A stretch of DNA of 64,000 bases, taken from a virus. How positions within the stretch are numbered: position 1 is the stretch's first letter; each line of letters begins with the position of its first letter. Below the pieces are notes generated by a model, which did no database searches, was not told the origin of the DNA, and saw only the letters and a list, made by a program, of their open reading frames with translations. Shown one piece after another: positions 16,428 through 37,281 of the stretch. A program made the position numbers and the translations under genes. Location: positions 1 through 64,000 of the IMG/VR virus record IMGVR_UViG_3300029215_000002; one strand, 5' to 3'.

Positions 16428-17030
16428 CTATTCTTCGTTATAATACTGAGCCAGTGATTCGTCATACCACTCCCAGTTATCAACTCCACCTGCTTCTAAT
16501 GCACTTAATTTTCTATCTCTATCAAGTAAATCCTCATACTCTTCTTTACTAATAGTCTTATTAGAGTTTTTGATCTTGACAGAATTGTTACCAATTAAAT
16601 TACATAACTGTGTTGTTGCATCCTTAACCTGTCCAATTACTTCATTTCTTATAGAACTATACAAATCTTTATATAGATTCTCACTCACTTCGCTTTTAAT
16701 AATATTCTGTAATGAACCGAGACGTTCTGGATTTTTAGATAACTGATTTTTTACATAATCATTAAATTTATCAGCGTATTTGTCACCGACTTCTTTGATA
16801 ATCGAATCATAAACTCTTTCCTTGATTTCATTTTTTATCTCGTCTTTTAATTCTCTTTCGTCACTGTATGTAAGTTCTATCTTTGATTTAATCTCACTCT
16901 TTATCTGATTGATAACATTATCTTTTGCAGCATCGAAATTCATTTCTTCCAATTCTCTAACAACGCCTTGTTTAATTCCTTCAAACACTTCATCAAAATC
17001 GAATTCAAATTTTAGTGGTGTACTCATCAA
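16428..17030 (-). CDS. hypothetical coiled-coil protein (200 aa)
   Basis: minus-strand ORF; K/E-rich repeats. Confidence 0.45.
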   Translation of the reverse strand: MMSTPLKFEFDFDEVFEGIKQGVVRELEEMNFDAAKDNVINQIKSEIKSKIELTYSDERELKDEIKNEIKERVYDSIIKEVGDKYADKFNDYVKNQLSKNPERLGSLQNIIKSEVSENLYKDLYSSIRNEVIGQVKDATTQLCNLIGNNSVKIKNSNKTISKEEYEDLLDRDRKLSALEAGGVDNWEWYDESLAQYYNEE

Positions 17031-18049: not shown

Positions 18050-18487
18050 TTACATTGCCTTTGCAATCGACTTAACCTGATTATCAAGGTATTTTACAAC
18101 CAGACGTTTCTTAGCAAGATTCAAACCTTTTTCAATTTCAAATTCATCATCTTTACAACAGGTAGCTTCTGCTTTAAATGCTCCACATCTAATCTGAACT
18201 TTTTTTCCGTTAGTTCGATAAAGATAGTTACATCTTACATCTTTGCCATTAATATCTGTAAACCTAATTTCATTTAAGTACCACTTACTCCAAGTCCTCT
18301 TTACAGGTTCTTCAACATTTTCAAAATACTTTTCATACTCGTCATATGACATACAGCCAAGATGACAACCACCAAACTTAAAGCAGATTACTCCACCTTC
18401 CTGAATATCAGTTACTTCACAAATCTCACCAATGTTATCAAAAACACCCATTTTATGAATGAGTTTAATTTTATCGCCTTTTATCAT
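18050..18487 (-). CDS. hypothetical protein (145 aa)
   Basis: minus-strand ORF. Confidence 0.45.
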   Translation of the reverse strand: MIKGDKIKLIHKMGVFDNIGEICEVTDIQEGGVICFKFGGCHLGCMSYDEYEKYFENVEEPVKRTWSKWYLNEIRFTDINGKDVRCNYLYRTNGKKVQIRCGAFKAEATCCKDDEFEIEKGLNLAKKRLVVKYLDNQVKSIAKAM

Positions 18488-19614
18488 GCTGCTTTGTCCT
18501 CCTTATTCGCAAATTTTTTGTTAAATGCATCAATAGCTTTCTGATCCTCTGCTGTTACATCATCATTAAATCTTCGTCTAGCTTGTACAATATGATTATT
18601 TCTTACTTCAATCGTTACCAAACTCTCATCTGGTTTACTCTTTTTTCTCAAAAAAAGAATGTGGCACTCACCGTCAATAACCTTATCTATGTATGAAGCA
18701 ACGCAATTTGACATCTGAGCAGCCTCATCCTTTATATCCTGTGTAGAATCTGGATAAATGAATATGTAATCACCAAAAGAGCATTCATACTGTTTATTTA
18801 TTCTCTTTTTAAATAACTCTTCTGAGAACTCTTTCTTCATTCGATTGTAATTTCTACAAGCAATCTTATGTGTAGTAAGGAAATGCCGTGGATATTTATC
18901 AAATTTAGGACTAATAGTTTTCATCATATTTGCATAATCGCACAATTCATGAATTAGGAAACCCATATCTTCAACTGCCTCAAACGTCTTGATTCTATCC
19001 AGATACAACCATAAATCCTTTGCATTATATCCAAAGTCGTTCACTAATTTATTGAAAAATGAATAATAAATTAAATCTCCATTAACTCTATCCCATGTTT
19101 CTGCATTCCAAACAATATAAATATCATCAAAATCTAAACTTAAATAATCCAAGTTATAAGCTATGTAATGTGCATCTTGATTTTCTTTATAATACTCAAC
19201 AGTATTGTTGGATAATTTAATAGGATATTTACGACATAATTTGATTAGAGATTTTGGGATTTCATTTATAGAATACTTGAACCGACAACCATCTTTAATA
19301 ATGTCATCAAAACCTGCTGAAAATATCTGTTCAAATCTATTATATCTTGGGACTCTATCAAGAATTGTTCCTATGTTACTTATCGGATACGAATACATTT
19401 CTGAGTTTCTAACAAATCGTAAAAACTTTGCATACTTCTCATCATCGCAACAATCAAATAATTTATTTAATGTAAGTCCACTTAACTGACTACATAGATT
19501 TTTTACTGGTTTACCCTTAATTCCAATAGCGGTCTTTGTTGCAAAATCATATTTTACGGTACGACCATCTTCATAATCAAAAATGAGATACTGCCTATCT
19601 TTATATACTCTCAT
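18484..19614 (-). CDS. PcfJ-like protein (376 aa)
   Basis: C-terminal MSNCVASYIDKVIDGECHILFLRKK...SLVTIEV resembles the conserved PcfJ-domain core. Moderate call from memory of the family. Confidence 0.45.
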   Translation of the reverse strand: MRVYKDRQYLIFDYEDGRTVKYDFATKTAIGIKGKPVKNLCSQLSGLTLNKLFDCCDDEKYAKFLRFVRNSEMYSYPISNIGTILDRVPRYNRFEQIFSAGFDDIIKDGCRFKYSINEIPKSLIKLCRKYPIKLSNNTVEYYKENQDAHYIAYNLDYLSLDFDDIYIVWNAETWDRVNGDLIYYSFFNKLVNDFGYNAKDLWLYLDRIKTFEAVEDMGFLIHELCDYANMMKTISPKFDKYPRHFLTTHKIACRNYNRMKKEFSEELFKKRINKQYECSFGDYIFIYPDSTQDIKDEAAQMSNCVASYIDKVIDGECHILFLRKKSKPDESLVTIEVRNNHIVQARRRFNDDVTAEDQKAIDAFNKKFANKEDKAA

Positions 19615-19668: not shown

Positions 19669-20256
19669 TCACATCATTATGTGTTTCGCCATCTGAGTAA
19701 TACAAAACTCCTTAATTCCAAGGTCAATTCCAATTTCATTATTACTAACTGGTAATTTCTCTTTATCATTCTGATTTACCAAAACAGAAACATAATATTT
19801 ACCAGAAGGGTTTTGTGAAACTGTAACAGATTTAATTAGCCCTTCAAAATCTCTATGTTTCTTGACCCTAATTAAACCTATTTTAGGTAATTTAATATAT
19901 CTATCAGATACATATATATTTCCACCTTGATTGTTAGTCGTGTAAGAGTAGTTGTGATTTTTCTTACTTTTGAATTTAGGGAAACCTACTTCTGGTCTTT
20001 TGAAGAAATTATTATAAGCCGTTTGTAAATTCATCTGTGCATTTGCTAACGCAAGAGAATCAACTTCTTTTAACCACTCAAACTCTTTCTTGTATTGAGC
20101 AGGTGTATTGTTAAGTTTCTTTTTTGTTTCCTTATAATACTCAATCTTATCTGAAAGCATACGATTATAGATGAATCGTACACATCCAAAACACTTTGCA
20201 AAATATTCTTTTTGTTCTTCGTTAGGATACAATCTGTATTTATATGCAATTAACAC
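19669..20256 (-). pseudogene. tnpB: Truncated TnpB (IS200/IS605/IS607 OrfB) N-terminal fragment, 195 aa, ending just after the RuvC-I motif
   Basis: N-terminal YRLYPNEEQKEYFAKCFGCVRFIYNRML and RuvC-I GIDLGIKEF are present. RuvC-II, the zinc finger and RuvC-III are missing. Paralogous to the intact TnpB at 36091..37281. Confidence 0.7.
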
Positions 20257-21182: not shown

Positions 21183-21416
21183 TTATTGTATTAATTTAGA
21201 TAACACTTTGACGCTTTCAATAATTATTCCAACAAACATAACACCTAAACCAGTAAACATTCCAGATATAATAGAACTGCCGATAATATGTTTTATGTCA
21301 AATAATTTTAAGCACATATCTCGTAGTTCTTTAAAACCAAAAAGAACTAACAAATATCCTACTGCGCCAACTACAAAACCAATCAAACCAGCTTTGCATG
21401 TCATAACTCCAAACAT
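21183..21416 (-). CDS. small two-TM membrane protein (77 aa)
   Basis: Hydrophobic segments GLIGFVVGAVGYLLVLFGF and GMFTGLGVMFVGIII. Confidence 0.45.
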   Translation of the reverse strand: MFGVMTCKAGLIGFVVGAVGYLLVLFGFKELRDMCLKLFDIKHIIGSSIISGMFTGLGVMFVGIIIESVKVLSKLIQ

Positions 21417-22087
21417 CAGTTTTCACCACCTAATAATTCCAAAGCTACTTTATAATATTTAGTTCTCCCTTTATATTCAGAAGAACTAACTTTGCTCAAT
21501 TCAAGTTTTATCTTACCAATGGTATATTGATGAGTGATAGCATCTTCCATGACCTGAATGAATCTTATACACTGCTTTAATTTCTTATGCTTGTCTCTAA
21601 TATCATCTAGCAAATAACCAACCTTTGCCATTCTATGAGCTTGTGGTTTCTTACCACCTCTATTTTCTCTATAAGTCTGTAATGCGTGTTCAATATCAGA
21701 TTCAGCACTATCACATCTACTTAATTCTGCTATAAGTAGATTTTTATATGTATTAAGCTGTTCCATGTCCCAGCCTGCTAATCCTAGAAGATTATTTGTT
21801 TCATTTATTATCTTGTCTAGCATTGAATAATCAAAATTACTTTCATCCATATAAACTCCATCATTACCTTTGTAGTAAAGAGATAATCCTGATTCTTCAT
21901 TTTTATCTACATCAACAAGCTGATAATTTCTTAGCCATGATAACCTTTTGCCGCCTCTCTGAACTAATGACCTTGCTTGTTTGTAGGTAAATTCTTTTGC
22001 TTTTAATGGCGAAGTTGTTGCTAGATACTCACCTATCTTCATAGGATTTTCCATTACATAATTCTTACCATTGGTTAAAATAAACAC
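21416..22087 (-). CDS. hypothetical protein (223 aa)
   Basis: minus-strand ORF. Confidence 0.5.
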   Translation of the reverse strand: MFILTNGKNYVMENPMKIGEYLATTSPLKAKEFTYKQARSLVQRGGKRLSWLRNYQLVDVDKNEESGLSLYYKGNDGVYMDESNFDYSMLDKIINETNNLLGLAGWDMEQLNTYKNLLIAELSRCDSAESDIEHALQTYRENRGGKKPQAHRMAKVGYLLDDIRDKHKKLKQCIRFIQVMEDAITHQYTIGKIKLELSKVSSSEYKGRTKYYKVALELLGGEN

Positions 22088-26559: not shown

Positions 26560-27939
26560 TTACATTGTAATGAAGTTGTCTACATCATTCTTCATCACTA
26601 AGTAATTCTCTTTTTGGTCTCTGATATATGTATTGTTTTTATCGAAGTAATCGATGAACCAATCTTTTAATTCAATTTCCTTTTCAAAGCTATAAGCTAC
26701 AATCGATAATAAAGACAACCTATTTTCTTTTTCTAATAGCCTTGAGCTGTTGTCTACTTCGACAGTATAATCATCTAGCATTGAACTAAACAATTCCATT
26801 CTATCTTCATCTACTTCGACAGAAGTAACATCTGTTACAAACTGTTCTACCTCTTCCTTTGTATATTCTCTACTTGGTTCTGGAATTTCTTCTTGAAAGT
26901 ATTCTTTCATTAACTTTTCGAGCATATCTAATTTTGCAAAGACAACCTTTTTATCTTTGCTATTTTTATCCTTATCATATGTATCAAAAGTTTTATCCTC
27001 ATACTCTGAGAATGTTTTGTTATGTAAGTTATTCTTAAACTCTAAAAGGAAGTCATTAAATCTCGCAGGTTCTATTTTATAGTCCAAGAATTTATGGAAC
27101 AAACTAAAGAATAAGAAGCTATTCTTTACATTGAACAATTTACCTGTTTCTTCATCAACAATATTAGCCAACATATCTAGTTCGTTGTTTAATGTATCAA
27201 ATTCTTCTTTGTTTGCGTTTTCATTTAAGTGTTTAAGTAAAGCTTGTCCTCTTGTATACTTATCAGAATGGAACATTATTGTTATTGTTTCATACACAGT
27301 TCTATTAAGCTTTCCGTTTTTAATTTCTGACTCTGTATAATTTCCATAATCCTTGAAGAAATTATTGTTAATTGTATCTTTTATATATGTAGCAATATTA
27401 GACATAGGAAGAATATTTTTCTCTTCTGCATTCATACTTGTCTGTCTGTTATATCTGGCAATATGATAAGCAATTTCTTCGTCTGTGCAATCCAAATGTT
27501 TAACTACCTCTATTGGGTAACTGTCGAAAGCATCTTGTAATTCTTCAGGCAAATCTTTAAAGCGCTTACCTCTTAAATCATATTTAACTACTTTCATTTC
27601 TTCGTTTATGCACTGTTGATAATATACAAAAGGCATTTCTAAATTCTTACTTATCCTAAAAGCACCGTTTTTATACTCTTCAAGAGTAGTTAATCTCTGT
27701 AAACCGTCTATCAACCATAAAATAAAATCTGTTTCGTTTAAAATTTGTTCGCAAATTTTAAGAGAATCTAAGTCTTCACCTTTTATTATAGTAGAGACTA
27801 GACCACTCTTCGCAATGAGTTTCCAACGGTCAGCATGTCTCTGTAGAGGATGATTTTTATTCAACTGTCCTCTCTTGAACATATTCAAAAGAACTTTAAC
27901 CATATATACATCTTTTTTCGTCTTGTCTCTACCAAGCAT
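26560..27939 (-). CDS. DUF262 (ParB/Srx-like nuclease N-terminal domain, DGLQR motif) protein with a long acidic C-terminal region, 459 aa
   Basis: LIDGLQRLTTL matches the DGQQR signature of DUF262/GmrS-like domains. No HNH/DUF1524-like His motif is visible in the C-terminal half. Confidence 0.6.
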   Translation of the reverse strand: MLGRDKTKKDVYMVKVLLNMFKRGQLNKNHPLQRHADRWKLIAKSGLVSTIIKGEDLDSLKICEQILNETDFILWLIDGLQRLTTLEEYKNGAFRISKNLEMPFVYYQQCINEEMKVVKYDLRGKRFKDLPEELQDAFDSYPIEVVKHLDCTDEEIAYHIARYNRQTSMNAEEKNILPMSNIATYIKDTINNNFFKDYGNYTESEIKNGKLNRTVYETITIMFHSDKYTRGQALLKHLNENANKEEFDTLNNELDMLANIVDEETGKLFNVKNSFLFFSLFHKFLDYKIEPARFNDFLLEFKNNLHNKTFSEYEDKTFDTYDKDKNSKDKKVVFAKLDMLEKLMKEYFQEEIPEPSREYTKEEVEQFVTDVTSVEVDEDRMELFSSMLDDYTVEVDNSSRLLEKENRLSLLSIVAYSFEKEIELKDWFIDYFDKNNTYIRDQKENYLVMKNDVDNFITM

Positions 27940-27990: not shown

Positions 27991-28605
27991 TTATGTAAAC
28001 AAGATAGAGATATTTCTATAAGCTTTTAATCCTTCAATGGCATCTAAAAGCTCTTTTCTATCTATCTTTAATATTCTCTCAATTTCACTGTATGTATAAC
28101 CTCGTGACAGCAATACTGCCACCTTCTTCTGTTTGTCGGATAAATGTTCTAAATATTCATCCAGCTTTTCACTTGCTTTACCAAAGCATTGTTTGTGAAC
28201 ATCGGAGTCAGATTTAAGCCCGCTAAGATAATTCTGAACCTTCTTAGTAGGATTCTCCAACGATATATTCTTAACAAAAACATCATTGCCTTCATCATCC
28301 TTCATAACTACACTTCTCTTTTTTCTATTCCTATCTCTTATGTATGTAGAATACAATCTCTTCTTTAATGAAGAAACTAAGAACGGATGGAATCTACATA
28401 TCTTTTCGTTGTAATTTAAAAGACTGTCTAAAAACACAACCTGTGCCAAGCTATACAAGTCATCATAATCCTTTTGACTTATTCCACCAATTTTAATGAT
28501 GATTGGATAACAAGTTTGTTTTAGCTTCTGCATATTGTTATCACAATATTGGTGAACAATTTCCATTTGTTTTCCCGTTAAGTTGGAATATTTTTTATTT
28601 TCCAT
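27991..28605 (-). CDS. Sigma-70 family RNA polymerase sigma factor (small, ECF/SigH-like)
   Basis: C-terminal region-4 HTH LSDKQKKVAVLLSRGYTYSEIERILKI; the N-terminal half is region-2-like. Confidence 0.6.
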   Translation of the reverse strand: MENKKYSNLTGKQMEIVHQYCDNNMQKLKQTCYPIIIKIGGISQKDYDDLYSLAQVVFLDSLLNYNEKICRFHPFLVSSLKKRLYSTYIRDRNRKKRSVVMKDDEGNDVFVKNISLENPTKKVQNYLSGLKSDSDVHKQCFGKASEKLDEYLEHLSDKQKKVAVLLSRGYTYSEIERILKIDRKELLDAIEGLKAYRNISILFT

Positions 28606-28846
28606 TAAACTAGACCTCCTTTACTTATCACTATTCGCTTTTTGTTCGCTCAACATTGTTGTGTTTTATTCATTTCCAAAGAATTTGAGTGGCTAAAGCG
28701 TTTTATGTATTTTTCGTCTAACAACTTAACTATATTTTAATAAAATATCCTCTTTTCTGAATAATATATTTGTAATTCTCTATACAATATATCATTTTCT
28801 ATATCTTATGTCAATATGCTTTATATAGGTTTCTATATATTTTGTA

Positions 28847-28879
28847 TTGACTAATATATTTTATATGTTACAATATAAA
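28847..28879 (+). promoter_or_regulatory. sigma-70-like promoter for the XRE regulator gene (TTGACT, 16 nt spacer, TACAAT)
   Basis: ttgact aatatattttatatgt tacaat, 20 nt upstream of RBS GGAGGTGA and the ATG at 28895. Confidence 0.5.
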
Positions 28880-28894
28880 TATGGAGGTGACATT

Positions 28895-29092
28895 ATGTTT
28901 TCATACAAACCATTATTAAAATTACTCATAGAGAGAGATATGACAAAAACTCAACTTCGTGAAGCCACTGGAATGAGTATGAATACTCTTGCTAAAATAA
29001 GCAAAAACGAATATATTTCAATGGCTACTCTTGACAACATCTGTTCTTATTTACATTGTAATATCGAAGATGTAATTGAATTTATTGAATAA
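28895..29092 (+). CDS. XRE-family helix-turn-helix transcriptional regulator (Cro/CI-type), 65 aa
   Basis: MTKTQLREATGMSMNTLAKISKNEYISMATLDNICSYL is a classic HTH_XRE. I prefer the ATG at 28895 with RBS GGAGGTGA over the longer track ORF from 28847. Confidence 0.7.
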   Translation: MFSYKPLLKLLIERDMTKTQLREATGMSMNTLAKISKNEYISMATLDNICSYLHCNIEDVIEFIE

Positions 29093-29974: not shown

Positions 29975-30370
29975 TTATTCACTCACCCTTTCTATGTTAC
30001 ATACATAAGCATTATAAATTTGTTGCTTATATTGTTTGTCGGTTATTTTTCCTCTATAATCTAAAATTCTACTCTTGTCTACTTGGCGAACAGCTTCACC
30101 TAAAACAATACTATCTTCTGTTAAAGCAGATATAAATTCGCTTTTAAGGAGGACGTGTGTTGGTTGCTTTAAACTTCTCTTTTGAGAAGTTAATGGCATT
30201 ACGATTGTTGTTGGACTATAATAATTTCCAATATTGTTTTGAATAACCACAGCAGGTCGAACGCCTCCTTGTTCACTTCCAATTGGTACATCGCCAAAAT
30301 CAACAGTAACAATATCATATGCCTTAATTTTTATTTCTCTTTTATGTTGCTCCTTTTTATTCTCAACCAT
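29975..30370 (-). CDS. MazF/PemK/Kid-family endoribonuclease toxin
   Basis: VDFGDVPIGSEQGGVRPAVVIQNNIGN...TTIVMPLTS matches the MazF core (DLDPTKGSEQAGHRPAVVLS...). Confidence 0.7.
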   Translation of the reverse strand: MVENKKEQHKREIKIKAYDIVTVDFGDVPIGSEQGGVRPAVVIQNNIGNYYSPTTIVMPLTSQKRSLKQPTHVLLKSEFISALTEDSIVLGEAVRQVDKSRILDYRGKITDKQYKQQIYNAYVCNIERVSE

Positions 30371-30671
30371 TTATTATTCGTCCTCCTTTCTTTAGTTTTT
30401 ATGTACTATTTTGTATCTTTCTTACTCTCTAACAATATATCAATAACATTGCCAACAACTTCTCTTTGAGAATAAGATAATCTGTATAACTTATGAGTAA
30501 TTTCTTCTTCCGTCATAGCATCACCTTCTTCTATGTTATTTCGGTAACACATTTTTGTTATCTTGATAACATTATAATTTACATTTTATTATCTGTCAAG
30601 TGTTTTTTGTTATTTTAATAACATTTTTTAACAAATCTAACCTTTTTAAGTTATTTTTAAAACATAATTTG

Positions 30672-30700
30672 TTGACACATTTTTTAAAATTTGATATTAT
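30672..30700 (+). promoter_or_regulatory. sigma-70-like promoter (TTGACA, 17 nt spacer, TATTAT) for the CI-like repressor
   Basis: ttgaca cattttttaaaatttga tattat, followed by RBS GAGGTGA and the ATG at 30721. Confidence 0.55.
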
Positions 30701-30720
30701 TTATGCAGAGGTGATATATT

Positions 30721-32306: not shown

Positions 32307-33410
32307 TTACTTTCGCCCATACATATCTGCGTTTACTTCAGCTTGCCAGTAGTTATGGCTCGTAGTATAAGAGTTAAACAACATAGCAATTAAATAGGCT
32401 TTAATATTTTGAATCCTAGTTGGATTTTCTTTTAATGCCACTATCACATACTCTATATGGTCATATTTTAATTTCCAGAATCTTTGTTGGACAATTGTAC
32501 TTGGATATTCCACTCCAGAAATCATATAGCTTATGTTATCAACAGTTACAACTTCTGTCATAAGTTCAACTATCTCATCAATTATTTCTCTGTCATTAGA
32601 GTAAGAGATTATTAAATCGCTATAACCTATGTTTTGTTTTATAATTTGGTTCAAACGAATATAATCTTGCATCGTATACTTTGGTTGTCTTTCTCTATCT
32701 ATCAATCCATCTCTTGTGTTATTAATATTATTATAGTTAGGTTGATAGATTGATTGTTTAATACTTAATTGTTTAGTATTTAATTGTTTAGTATTTAATT
32801 GTATGCGGTTTTCCATATCAGGAAATCCCATATCTGGGTTATCCATATCTGGGAAATCAGGATATGGATGAGATACCAGTAAATCTGCCCTTTTCAAAGG
32901 ACACCTTTCTTTTTCGCTTATGTAATCTTCAATCGAGATATTATCGGCAACATTTAAATTTTTAGTATTATTGTAATGTGTATCATTTGTATTAAAATCA
33001 GTATCTTTCCCTTCGATTTGTTTAATATTAGTATTATTATTTTTAACACTATTATTAATATTACCTTCAGTAGTGTTTTCAGAATTAACCTTATTATTAT
33101 TACATTTAGTAAACTTTTGAGGTTCATCATAAAGTGTATAATCCACATCTAAGATTTTACCTTTATCATCTCTAATTGTAGTTCTAATTAAATAACCTAA
33201 TTCTTCTAATTTTTTTAATCCACTTGTAATAGTTGTTCTGCCATCTGGTAAAATTTGATTTAATCCATTAATAGAAAATTCCCACTCAGATGGTAGACTT
33301 AACATTGTTATAAGCAGACCTCTTGATTTAATATCTAAATTCATATCTCTTAATATTGCATTGTTAACAATTGTGAAATTATTTTTTAGTTCTTTCTTTA
33401 GTATGCCCAT
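32307..33410 (-). CDS. Putative replication initiator (N-terminal winged-helix/DnaD-RepA-like domain) carrying internal iterons
   Basis: The N-terminus ILRDMNLDIKSRGLLITMLSLPSEWEFSINGLNQILPDGRTTITSGLKKLEELGYLIR resembles replication-initiator/replisome-organiser HTH domains. The central region is encoded by tandem DNA repeats. Confidence 0.5.
   Translation of the reverse strand: MGILKKELKNNFTIVNNAILRDMNLDIKSRGLLITMLSLPSEWEFSINGLNQILPDGRTTITSGLKKLEELGYLIRTTIRDDKGKILDVDYTLYDEPQKFTKCNNNKVNSENTTEGNINNSVKNNNTNIKQIEGKDTDFNTNDTHYNNTKNLNVADNISIEDYISEKERCPLKRADLLVSHPYPDFPDMDNPDMGFPDMENRIQLNTKQLNTKQLSIKQSIYQPNYNNINNTRDGLIDRERQPKYTMQDYIRLNQIIKQNIGYSDLIISYSNDREIIDEIVELMTEVVTVDNISYMISGVEYPSTIVQQRFWKLKYDHIEYVIVALKENPTRIQNIKAYLIAMLFNSYTTSHNYWQAEVNADMYGRK
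32751..32880. repeat. Iteron-like tandem repeats inside the rep gene (about 3.5 copies of TAATTGTTTAGTATT; then CCATATCTGGG x2 plus an inverted copy)
   Basis: Directly visible: ...gattgtttaatact taattgtttagtatt taattgtttagtatt taattgtatgcgg..., then cccatatctgggttatccatatctgggaaatcaggatatgg. Confidence 0.6.
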
Positions 33411-33438: not shown

Positions 33439-34386
33439 TTATACTATCCTGAGTTTATTCGCCATATTTATAGCTGTTTGATACTTGTCTACATCATCAG
33501 TAAGACACCTAATAATTTTTCCTAAATCATCAGATTTTAGGGAGATAACAGGCATATTTTTGACTATCTCATCACCTTTGCCAGCCAATACATTATGGAT
33601 AAACTCCCCATGGTCATTAATCAACTGTCTATTTTTCTCGTCTGTTAAACCAATATAATCCATAGTATCGTTTAAATTTGTATGATTAAACAATTTCTGC
33701 AATGATAATAAACAATCGGGATCAAATGGATGTGTCTTATGAATCCAATAGCCAAAACTCTTACGAAGAGAGTGCGTACTGACAGCATATTTTATATTCG
33801 CTGCTTCAACTGCTTTGTTTAACAGTTTTCTATAAACATTCGTTTGTTGCTTTACGACATCGTTATATTCCACCACATAATAAAGATAATCTCCAAGAGA
33901 TGAATATCTTTGTTGTTTACTAAACTCTTTGATTATTTTCTCTTTTCTATCTTCTGATATAGTTTTATTTAGTGCTTTACACCAAAACTCTATATCATTT
34001 TTACTGTAAATATCTAAGTTCTTTCTTTTTATCCAGTTACTTTTAGGAATATATTTGAAGATGTATTCGTTGTAATGTTTCTTTATATCAACATCTACAT
34101 TCTCCAAATACTTATCTACAACTTCAAACACAGTATCACTTATGGGGATATTAGTAACTTTCTCTGTTTTTTGTTCCTCAATAGTGTTAATTTCTCTTTT
34201 TCGATTTCCGTTTTCGTAATACAAATCAGACCATTTTATCATGACTGTATCACCAATTCTTCTACCGAGCAGGAGTTCCAACATTGTAATGAGATATCCA
34301 TCCCATTCATTATTATTTTCAAACCATTCAACTACATTTCTAATGTCTTCCATTTTCCAAAACGGATATACTGCCATATTTATCAA
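33439..34386 (-). CDS. int: Tyrosine site-specific recombinase/integrase (small, XerC/D-like), 315 aa
   Basis: C-terminal catalytic boxes: STHSLRKSFGYWIHKTH (H-x-x-R ... H) and LLSLQKLFNHTNLNDTMDYIGL (catalytic Tyr). Confidence 0.7.
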   Translation of the reverse strand: MINMAVYPFWKMEDIRNVVEWFENNNEWDGYLITMLELLLGRRIGDTVMIKWSDLYYENGNRKREINTIEEQKTEKVTNIPISDTVFEVVDKYLENVDVDIKKHYNEYIFKYIPKSNWIKRKNLDIYSKNDIEFWCKALNKTISEDRKEKIIKEFSKQQRYSSLGDYLYYVVEYNDVVKQQTNVYRKLLNKAVEAANIKYAVSTHSLRKSFGYWIHKTHPFDPDCLLSLQKLFNHTNLNDTMDYIGLTDEKNRQLINDHGEFIHNVLAGKGDEIVKNMPVISLKSDDLGKIIRCLTDDVDKYQTAINMANKLRIV

Positions 34387-35929: not shown

Positions 35930-36110
35930 ATAAAAAGTTATAATTATCTTATCTTTTATGTTTCATTCCTACTTCTATGAGTATGCTTTTGAGGGTTGCT
36001 TGCAACCCTCTACTTACAAGTTCTTGTACTCTCCATAGGCGTAAATTCCTGACTAACGAATCAGTACATATCTGTGATAACTTGATTGTGTTATACTACA
36101 GATTGTTTTA
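35930..36110 (-). ncRNA. Candidate omega-RNA (TnpB guide RNA scaffold) overlapping the 3' end of tnpB and the element's right end
   Basis: Position expected for omega-RNA. It contains a perfect hairpin GAGGGTTGC-tt-GCAACCCTC and further short hairpins (TACAAG-tt-CTTGTA; CTGAC..TCAG) immediately 3' of the tnpB stop. Confidence 0.35.
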
Positions 36111-37281
36111 AAATATTTTCTCCGTATTTTTTTAGATTTAAAGAAGCTTGATAATCTCTGTCAATTACATTTCCACATTCACATCTGTAAATACGGTCTG
36201 ATAAACTTAAATCTTTCTTGATTGTTCCACAACAACTACATAATTTAGAACTTGGAAAGAATCTGTCTACAATGATTACTGAAATATTATTCCAAACAGA
36301 CTTATATTCAATTTGTCGTCTAATTTCATAAAATCCTTGTTGTTGTACTGCTTTGGATAAATGCCTATTCTTCATCATTCCACTTACATTCAAATCTTCT
36401 AACACAATAAAACTTGGTTCTCGTTTTATAATCTCTGAAGTTATATGATGTATGTAGTTCTGACGAATGTTTGTTAGTCTATGATTTAATTTTAATAAAA
36501 GTTTTTCCTTTTTGATTACATTCTTTGTTTTACAGTAACTTTCTCCTTTCTTATTTTTTCCATATTTTCTTGATATAGAACGCTGTAATCTGCGTTTTTG
36601 TTTTTCTAACTTCTTAACTCTTTGTGTCTTGTTAATGTTTTGATATTTATTACCATCAGAACATATTGCTAAATCTTTAATTCCTAAATCAATTCCAATT
36701 CCTTCATTAGACGGATTTATAGTGGAATCTTCATACTCAATACCAACCGTAAAATACCAATTTATTCCATCATATTTGATACGAGGATTCGTGTACTTAC
36801 AATCTGTAGGTATTCTATTATGTTCTGCAAGTCTAATCCAATTTAACTTTTGTTTGCTTTTCTTCTTAGAATTAGCAAACCCCTCAACTTTTACATGAGT
36901 ATCAGAAAATTGAATCCTTACATTATCCTGATAGAAAGATGGCATTGAAAATTTACGGCTTTTAAACTTAGGGAATTTTGAATATCCTTTGAAAAATCTC
37001 TTATATGCGTTGCAAGCATCTTTAATTGCTTGTTTTGTTACATTATTAGAGATTTTATTTAACCAAGAATATTTATCAGTTTTCTTCAACTGTGTAAATT
37101 CTTTTCTCAAATCTCCATCAAATATGAACTTGCCACCATTTTTATGGTTTTCTTTTTCTCTACTTAAAGCCCAATTATAAGCAAATCTGGCAGTATTAGC
37201 ATATTGGAAAAGTTTAGTCTTTTGCTTGTTATTTGGAAGTAACATTACTCGAATTGTTTTTATCATCTTTTTCACCTCCAT
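36091..37281 (-). CDS. tnpB: TnpB (IS200/IS605/IS607-family OrfB RNA-guided endonuclease), intact, 396 aa
   Basis: RuvC-I GIDLGIKDLA, RuvC-II IVLEDLNVSGM, zinc finger CSCCG...CECG, RuvC-III DRDYQASLNL. Confidence 0.85.
   Translation of the reverse strand: MEVKKMIKTIRVMLLPNNKQKTKLFQYANTARFAYNWALSREKENHKNGGKFIFDGDLRKEFTQLKKTDKYSWLNKISNNVTKQAIKDACNAYKRFFKGYSKFPKFKSRKFSMPSFYQDNVRIQFSDTHVKVEGFANSKKKSKQKLNWIRLAEHNRIPTDCKYTNPRIKYDGINWYFTVGIEYEDSTINPSNEGIGIDLGIKDLAICSDGNKYQNINKTQRVKKLEKQKRRLQRSISRKYGKNKKGESYCKTKNVIKKEKLLLKLNHRLTNIRQNYIHHITSEIIKREPSFIVLEDLNVSGMMKNRHLSKAVQQQGFYEIRRQIEYKSVWNNISVIIVDRFFPSSKLCSCCGTIKKDLSLSDRIYRCECGNVIDRDYQASLNLKKYGENILKQSVV

Follow-up and report, generated by a model that had tools for sequence, protein, structure and literature searches.

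We analyzed a 64,000-nucleotide stretch of viral DNA (positions 1 to 64,000 of IMG/VR virus record IMGVR_UViG_3300029215_000002, hereafter the window) and focused on a minus-strand gene of the DUF262 family that lies directly behind a gene for a phage sigma factor. The DUF262 gene product is probably a nuclease-less DNA-binding protein with a ParB/DUF262-type nucleotide switch that acts as the dedicated partner of the upstream sigma-70-family factor. A partner or regulator of sigma best explains the data because the two genes always adjoin, appear to be co-transcribed and are fused in one clade, because the pair is universal in its lineage, and because the protein joins an invariant predicted nucleoside triphosphate (NTP) pocket to a predicted DNA-binding core and lacks a nuclease. 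The two genes and the parts of the DUF262 protein are as follows.

26560..27939, minus strand: DUF262-family gene, ATG start, 459 codons plus stop, supported by the open reading frame (ORF) list, homologues and an AlphaFold model
27445..27939, minus strand: ParB-DUF262 NTP-binding domain, residues ~1–165, mixed alpha/beta
27823..27843, minus strand: motif I, QRHADRW (Q33, R34 ... W39), a QRxxxxW variant of the DUF262 motif QRxxxW, with Q33, R34 and W39 invariant in the alignment
27694..27708, minus strand: motif II, DGLQR, residues 78–82, predicted nucleotide-binding centre
26899..27417, minus strand: all-helical domain resembling the ParB-associated DNA-binding domain (ParBDB), residues ~175–347, net charge about −4, assigned from the NsnA hidden Markov model, phrog_2598 and helices at 180–347 in the AlphaFold model
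26860..26898, minus strand: acidic linker, residues ~348–360, with a predicted local distance difference test score (pLDDT) of about 60; indel-prone, 16–64 residues long in relatives and net negative throughout
26563..26859, minus strand: acidic five-helix bundle, family-specific, residues 361–459
27991..28605, minus strand: sigma-70-family factor of 204 residues with regions 2 and 4, 51 base pairs (bp) upstream of the DUF262 gene (TIGR02937, 1e-8; PHROG "sigma factor")

Linkage between the two genes was counted in 80 IMG/VR loci, 77 of them assessable. In 75 of the 77, the DUF262 gene is preceded by a sigma homologue whose end lies −25 to +54 bp upstream, with a mode of 17 bp, and the remaining two (L084 and L090) carry one uninterrupted in-frame ORF of about 680 residues that encodes sigma, a linker of about 20 residues, DUF262 (with DLDGKQR), ParBDB and the C-terminal bundle in that order. 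In each of four independent genomic contexts, a homologue of the window sigma (33–98% identity) is encoded directly 5′ of the DUF262 homologue, and sigma is adjacent or fused in nine of nine bacterial-genome loci as well as in an unannotated faecal phage (L103). A fusion query of the protein database recovered more than 100 clusters of 560–730 residues with precomputed Sigma70_r2 and GmrSD_N matches, from [Clostridium] symbiosum, Lacrimispora, Anaerosporobacter and other Lachnospiraceae, under mixed annotations as sigma factor or as "GmrSD restriction endonuclease domain-containing". Because the fused forms make up one diverse clade, sister to the split forms, in a neighbour-joining tree of the core, the two arrangements point to a single ancient fusion or fission event that has been stably kept on both sides.

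The linkage is specific to the DUF262 gene and does not extend to its downstream neighbours: within 5 kb on either side, sigma is found in 18 of 18 non-redundant loci and the genes immediately downstream are common to one of 18. When loci were anchored on an unrelated conserved gene encoding a 223-residue protein, both sigma and DUF262 genes were present in all 52 loci with full flanks, and the pair is a core feature of this phage group. Segment-wise co-variation groups sigma region 4 with DUF262 and ParBDB in a single inherited block (rho 0.81–0.89); the strongest correlation of sigma region 2 is with the distal C-terminal module (0.57–0.58, versus 0.46–0.48 with its own region 4). Judged from these genomes, the pattern of pairing looks like the signature of a core transcription-control component and not of a variable defence gene. 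An earlier note on this DNA, made from the sequence alone, mentioned sigma as a landmark only and had proposed exclusion of modified phages, nicking or an anti-defence decoy, all of which treat the DUF262 gene as a stand-alone conflict gene; the pairing with sigma in 75 of 77 loci, the fusions and the presence of both genes in 52 of 52 loci leave such stand-alone roles unsupported.

The upstream partner is a complete sigma factor by family-level comparison. Regions 2 and 4 are recognisable in its family, whose profile matches solved SigH (3mzy; profile positions 49–206), FliA and SigA regions 2–4, and 12 of 20 family members match Pfam Sigma70_r2; the window sigma alone falls below the TIGR02937 cutoff (34.9 versus 42.9), and a word-indexed protein search returned 26 sigma matches only. 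Sigma is first in the direction of transcription and the co-oriented DUF262 gene follows at its 3′ side in the same operon, so the earlier note was right that the two are adjacent but had placed the DUF262 gene upstream of sigma. The arrangement, with a partner directly 3′ of sigma across a 51-bp gap, is that of a sigma/anti-sigma operon, and we found no minus-strand terminator-like site between or after the two genes.

The DUF262-family ORF is a real gene, as judged from 724 homologues in a large protein database (E ≤ 1e-3), the invariant motif residues and an AlphaFold model of the whole 459-residue protein with mean pLDDT 84.8. DUF262 proteins are defined by the motifs QRxxxW (I), DGxQR (II) and FxxxN (III) (PMC12065111), and the window protein carries motif II exactly, motif I as QRxxxxW and motif III as IxxxN, with I160 in at least 90% of aligned sequences and N164 invariant. 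Motif II lies within IDGLQR at residues 77–82, and in an alignment of 36 homologues (48–91% identity) D78, G79, Q81 and R82 are invariant; relatives at ~35% identity, including the fused clade, retain it as DGKQR. The predicted protein has a ParB/Srx-like fold, and the earlier description of a phage-borne, 459-residue DUF262 protein of ParB/Srx type with a DGxQR motif holds. The window protein does not reach the Pfam gathering score for PF03235 (GmrSD_N; 16.2 bits versus a cutoff of 33.2). The family assignment is nonetheless secure because PF03235 is precomputed on several homologues at 53–81% identity and on nearly all fused relatives, because the PADLOC model of NsnA, its best PADLOC match, aligns to residues 8–347 (4.3e-12; model positions 47–382 of 385), and because two PHROGs of unknown function match the protein, with phrog_2598 spanning residues 10–344. 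NCBIfam gave no match, megablast of 6 kb around the gene found no match among deposited phages, and searches of the PDB with the single protein and with the family profile were empty at the sequence level, so that only fold comparison was informative.

Behind the DUF262 domain, the ParBDB-like domain is of a kind common to NsnA, DndB, GmrSD and SspE (PMC12065111). Residues 171–345 are all-helical in the AlphaFold model and carry a net charge of −4, and acidity is limited to the last ~114 residues (net −18); the acidic C-terminus described in the earlier note is thus real and conserved in the family, but its extent of about 290 strongly acidic residues was overestimated, and the model shows a region that is mostly folded and not a disordered tail. 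The isolated five-helix bundle is modelled confidently, with a predicted template modelling score (pTM) of 0.78. Since the linker and bundle together carry −11 to −25 across the family and the core is near neutral, the acidity is a selected feature, but one of a folded module of ~100 residues and its linker. Among 1.84 billion representative proteins, a profile of the C-terminal module matches no more than 306 clusters; the module always lies at the C-terminal end of members of the DUF262 protein's own family, short matches being fragments, and by hhalign it shows no relationship to the sigma family. A distant Bacillus-phage homologue, a 397-residue ORF, consists of the DUF262 and ParBDB core only and lacks both the bundle and a sigma neighbour.

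No nuclease could be recognised in the protein. DUF1524 and HNH domains are absent by Pfam search and by fold, histidine does not occur after residue 306 and is missing from the last 150 residues, and fold comparison found no nuclease relatives of the five-helix bundle. The earlier observation that a His-Me/HNH/DUF1524 partner domain is lacking is borne out, and the predicted structure of the C-terminal half shows the bundle in place of a GmrSD-like DUF1524 domain. Cysteines number three (positions 63, 110 and 151), and neither a Pfam anti-sigma domain nor a zinc-binding HxxxCxxC motif was found.

Comparison with known systems places the protein beside several DUF262 and ParB relatives without merging it with any of them. 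Menshen NsnA, the sensor of the NsnABC anti-phage system, likewise has a ParB-DUF262 and ParBDB core and no nuclease domain. The window protein differs from NsnA in its additional acidic five-helix C-terminal module and in being obligately paired or fused with a full sigma-70-family factor, and it is a core gene of a phage lineage whereas NsnA is a bacterial defence-island gene. NsnB (ABC ATPase plus DUF3696) and the NsnC effector were not found after the DUF262 gene or in related loci, and the published catalogue of NsnA N-terminal domains lists only a sigma region-1.1-like domain among sigma types, always in NsnABC loci (PMC12065111). GmrSD, BrxU and SspE combine DUF262 with DUF1524 as type IV restriction or phosphorothioate-sensing nucleases, and the window protein lacks the DUF1524 His-Me nuclease. 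DndB is likewise a nuclease-less protein with DUF262 and a helical DNA-binding domain; it regulates transcription (PMC12065111, PMC12704722) and has been described as an ATP-dependent repressor (PMC12704722). DndB works with DNA phosphorothioation genes and without a sigma partner, and here no dnd or ssp genes are present and the protein has no PADLOC DndB match.

The joining of a ParB-fold switch to a phage sigma is not without recent precedent: the human-gut phage fusion uvig_297896_22 is a ParB-CTPase-fold::Sigma70 protein whose isolated fold bound ATP in a PNAS 2025 survey (PMC12704722). That survey was seeded with PF02195 (ParBc), does not mention DUF262/PF03235 and established no function for the Sigma70 fusion (PMC12704722). 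Both proteins unite an NTP fold of the ParB superfamily with Sigma70 in a gut phage, and with a pocket motif of GEHRVRA in uvig_297896_22 versus DGxQR here, the survey protein is an analogous architecture from a different ParB lineage. KorB, VirB and BisD, CTP-dependent clamps or switches of the ParB family, load on DNA to regulate promoters and give a template for the mechanism proposed below. They have canonical ParBc and helix-turn-helix (HTH) domains, use CTP and specific loading sites and are not associated with sigma, and we found no loading site near the pair. Full-text literature searches found no description of DUF262/PF03235 or GmrSD in association with sigma factors, and the DUF262-ParBDB lineage, its split-operon form, the family-specific acidic module and the core status of the pair in a phage group appear to be undescribed.

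In the mechanism that we favor, the sigma and DUF262 proteins would form a complex, to which the natural fusions lend indirect support, and the DUF262 and ParBDB core would bind an NTP (probably ATP) and phage DNA, as its relatives do. NTP and DNA binding could then gate or tether sigma, restricting transcription of the next temporal class of phage genes to the right DNA or the right time. We infer these activities of the core, and the tethering or gating of sigma, by analogy with DndB, KorB, VirB and BisD. The acidic linker and five-helix bundle, seen only in sigma-linked members, may serve as a module for interaction with sigma or RNA polymerase or for auto-inhibition. On the sign of regulation we lean toward a positive, DNA-tethering role over a brake.

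Several observations weigh against a partnership with sigma or temper it. The case for complex formation, NTP binding and DNA binding by the DUF262 protein is comparative, and the closest match in a defence library is a sensor, Menshen NsnA. All sampled loci come from related phages, and part of the synteny could be inherited instead of selected; the fusion is likewise one evolutionary event. The co-variation of sigma region 2 with the C-terminal module is a hint at most, with counter-examples such as L055 versus L057, and backbone recombination could also produce the pattern. A search of the window for enriched 8-mers or a two-block promoter specific to the phage, covering 35 upstream regions, did no better than shuffles, and the targets of the phage sigma probably lie outside the window; in 19 diverged loci no shared parS-like palindrome was found in or around the pair.

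Among other explanations, an anti-sigma-type brake would have the DUF262 protein hold the phage sigma inactive and release it on an NTP or DNA signal. We regard this as possible though unlikely: sigma and anti-sigma genes classically stand in this order, with the partner co-transcribed behind sigma, and the surfaces through which sigma binds DNA could be masked by the acidic module, but the protein has neither an anti-sigma domain nor a zinc-binding motif, sequestration by itself would not call for a large NTPase core that binds DNA, and a stable covalent fusion throughout a large clade suits a constitutive partner better than a releasable inhibitor. Sigma factors of the extracytoplasmic function group with regulatory C-terminal extensions do exist, which tempers the argument from fusion. 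Prophage defence or superinfection exclusion, with the protein as a Menshen-like DUF262 sensor, the sigma-like protein as an extra DNA-binding sensor domain and an effector of some kind, seems less probable again. NsnA is the best PADLOC match (4e-12), the gene lies near a lysogeny module with a PemK/MazF-like RNase gene conserved 2–2.6 kb upstream, and some NsnA proteins do have added N-terminal DNA-binding domains (PMC12065111). Against this, the genes next to the pair vary between loci and include neither an NsnB ABC ATPase nor NsnC nor any other effector; both genes occur throughout the phage group at a fixed position, unlike variable defence genes; and sigma here is complete, having both region 2 and region 4, where NsnA N-terminal domains are listed only as sigma-70 region-1.1-like.

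The remaining explanations account for still less of the evidence. An anti-defence decoy that mimics DNA through the acidic C-terminal region would fit the conserved net charge of −11 to −25 over linker and bundle and the company of other counter-defence-type genes in the window, such as one with a T7 gp5.9-like domain, yet it leaves unexplained the invariant NTP pocket, the 345-residue conserved core and the strict linkage or fusion to sigma, and only a small share of the protein is acidic. A decoy is therefore very unlikely, although the narrower suggestion in the earlier note of a DNA-mimicking tail is neither supported nor excluded by these data. A type IV restriction enzyme like GmrSD or SspE, or a nicking enzyme, with modified DNA as its target has in its favor the DUF262 fold with DGxQR and the frequent annotation of relatives as "GmrSD restriction endonuclease domain-containing protein". 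With DUF1524 and HNH absent by sequence and by fold, the last 150 residues free of histidine and no nuclease gene conserved nearby, we give it almost no credence. Equally hard to credit is a ParB-type partition or segregation protein of a plasmid-like prophage, to which the superfamily fold and the nearby DUF6017 replication-type and tyrosine recombinase genes might point: there is no PF02195 match, no canonical ParB HTH or dimerisation domain, no ParA-like gene in the called neighbourhoods and no conserved parS-like palindrome, and near-identical genes lie in 310–940 kb contigs, which suggests chromosomal integration.

If the partnership with sigma is correct, the DUF262 branch of the ParB superfamily, so far known from restriction or defence sensors and DndB, gains a role in controlling transcription initiation through a sigma factor. 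Hundreds of Lachnospiraceae/Clostridia prophage proteins named "GmrSD restriction endonuclease domain-containing protein" are probably misclassified, a point that matters for censuses of defence systems; like the window protein, they would be matched by the PADLOC NsnA model. With its split and fused forms, the pair would offer a simple, testable two-protein system for the timing of gene expression in large temperate gut phages and for the coupling of a ParB-type nucleotide switch to RNA polymerase. Taken with the ParBc-Sigma70 fusion of 2025, the DUF262 pair points to more than one recruitment of ParB-fold NTP switches by phage sigma factors.

A bolder extension of the sigma partnership, which we offer as speculation and consider unlikely, casts the DUF262-ParBDB protein as a DNA clamp or tether gated by NTP: once loaded onto the DNA of the phage, it would deliver its cognate sigma factor or license it. 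In T4, the late sigma gp55 acts with gp33 and the sliding clamp gp45 and so depends on a DNA-loaded accessory protein. The DUF262 pair shares no homology with the T4 late transcription proteins and the functional analogy is speculative; on this idea the DUF262 protein might be a ParB-superfamily counterpart of the clamp-dependent late switch, middle or late transcription of large temperate gut phages might depend on the nucleotide or DNA state of the infected cell, and sigma region 4, DUF262 and ParBDB might form an exchangeable DNA-specificity cassette.

The carrier is a large temperate phage of Clostridia/Lachnospiraceae with the pair in a regulatory operon of its early region. The window covers the early and replication region of a large phage, with genes for a DNA polymerase, a primase/helicase and an exonuclease, and also encodes an S24 repressor, a PemK-like protein, a tyrosine recombinase and a DUF6017 protein; related IMG/VR contigs span 90–220 kb, related prophages occur in Clostridia/Lachnospiraceae genomes, and near-identical DUF262 genes sit inside the 310–940 kb contigs noted above. 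A DNA-hypermodification context was considered and rejected, with no such genes among the 28 larger window ORFs scanned. Genes downstream of the DUF262 gene are small (105, 181, 80, 96 and 167 residues) and none has an ATPase match. The earlier note had placed the gene among Cys-rich small proteins; a Cys-rich gene is indeed present, but it is common to one of the 18 non-redundant related loci. Three features lie upstream of the sigma-DUF262 operon.

28786..28814, minus strand: sigmaA-type promoter of the operon, TTGACA-17 nt-TATATT with extended −10 TG, 11 of 12 matches in a promoter scan and read directly from the sequence
28781..28845: tandem 31-nt repeat overlapping the promoter, candidate operator (repeat family D4; two copies, weak evidence alone)
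28847..29092, plus strand: divergent small Cro/C1-type HTH gene of 81 residues, candidate regulator of the operon, with the HTH assigned by reading the ORF sequence

A repeat search near the DUF262 gene found nothing beyond this two-copy tandem repeat. The divergent small HTH gene is common to three of 18 loci, and one related locus has an HTH_26 gene beside PemK.

Other variants of the pair and its surroundings were seen in related phages. Some fused sigma::DUF262 proteins (P0148/P0151, 572–576 residues; L104 4001–6588) have no bundle, their sequence stopping precisely where ParBDB ends; a resolvase gene follows in L104, and the loss of the bundle may reflect a rearrangement or remnant. One or two extra short ORFs of 172–266 residues with GmrSD_N only occur a few kb upstream of the pair in related phages (L005 1–891, L006 91–891, L008 495–2033). 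The 223-residue protein used as an anchor (21416–22087, minus strand) has no Pfam or PHROG match and may be a further member of the regulatory block: in most relatives its gene lies just upstream of sigma with a 63-residue Zn-ribbon ORF between them, and in the window lineage it lies ~4.5 kb downstream of the DUF262 gene.

Directly after the divergent S24 repressor comes the PemK/MazF-like toxin gene (29975–30370, minus strand; Pfam 1.7e-25). All 18 non-redundant related viral loci have a PemK homologue 2–2.6 kb upstream of DUF262; in P0018-type loci (L010–L012) none lies within 6 kb upstream. The divergent region between the S24 repressor and the PemK operon holds three copies of a ~37-nt repeat (30537–30701); the copies overlap sigmaA-type consensus promoters on each strand and probably serve as operators for the switch between lysis and lysogeny. 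Further along, a tyrosine-recombinase-family gene (315 residues; 33439–34386, minus strand) adjoins the DUF6017 gene (367 residues with a long Asn-rich low-complexity centre; 32307–33410, minus strand); the recombinase gene lies in the middle of the element and not at an end, and may have a regulator or resolution function rather than that of an integrase.

Elsewhere on the minus strand of the window, a 200-residue protein (16428–17030) matches at its C-terminus the Pfam Phage_T7_Gp5_9 RecBCD-inhibitor domain (2.7e-17), and a ClpP-like protease (2354–2914; Pfam 2.9e-29) and a PcfJ-like protein (18484–19614; 3.7e-23) are encoded. A full-length IS605 OrfB/TnpB-like gene of 396 residues lies at 36091–37281, and a second copy at 19669–20256 is apparently split, with a 195-residue ORF that holds the HTH_OrfB_IS605 part only; the split pair is also present in related loci. 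At 580–1933, phosphoribosyltransferase/phosphoribosyl pyrophosphate (PRPP)-synthetase-like and isochorismatase (nicotinamidase-like) genes stand side by side and look like a pair of the nicotinamide adenine dinucleotide (NAD)-salvage type, and in Bacillus phage PJN02 (L102) a DUF262 homologue lies near genes for a ribose-phosphate pyrophosphokinase and a nicotinamide phosphoribosyltransferase.

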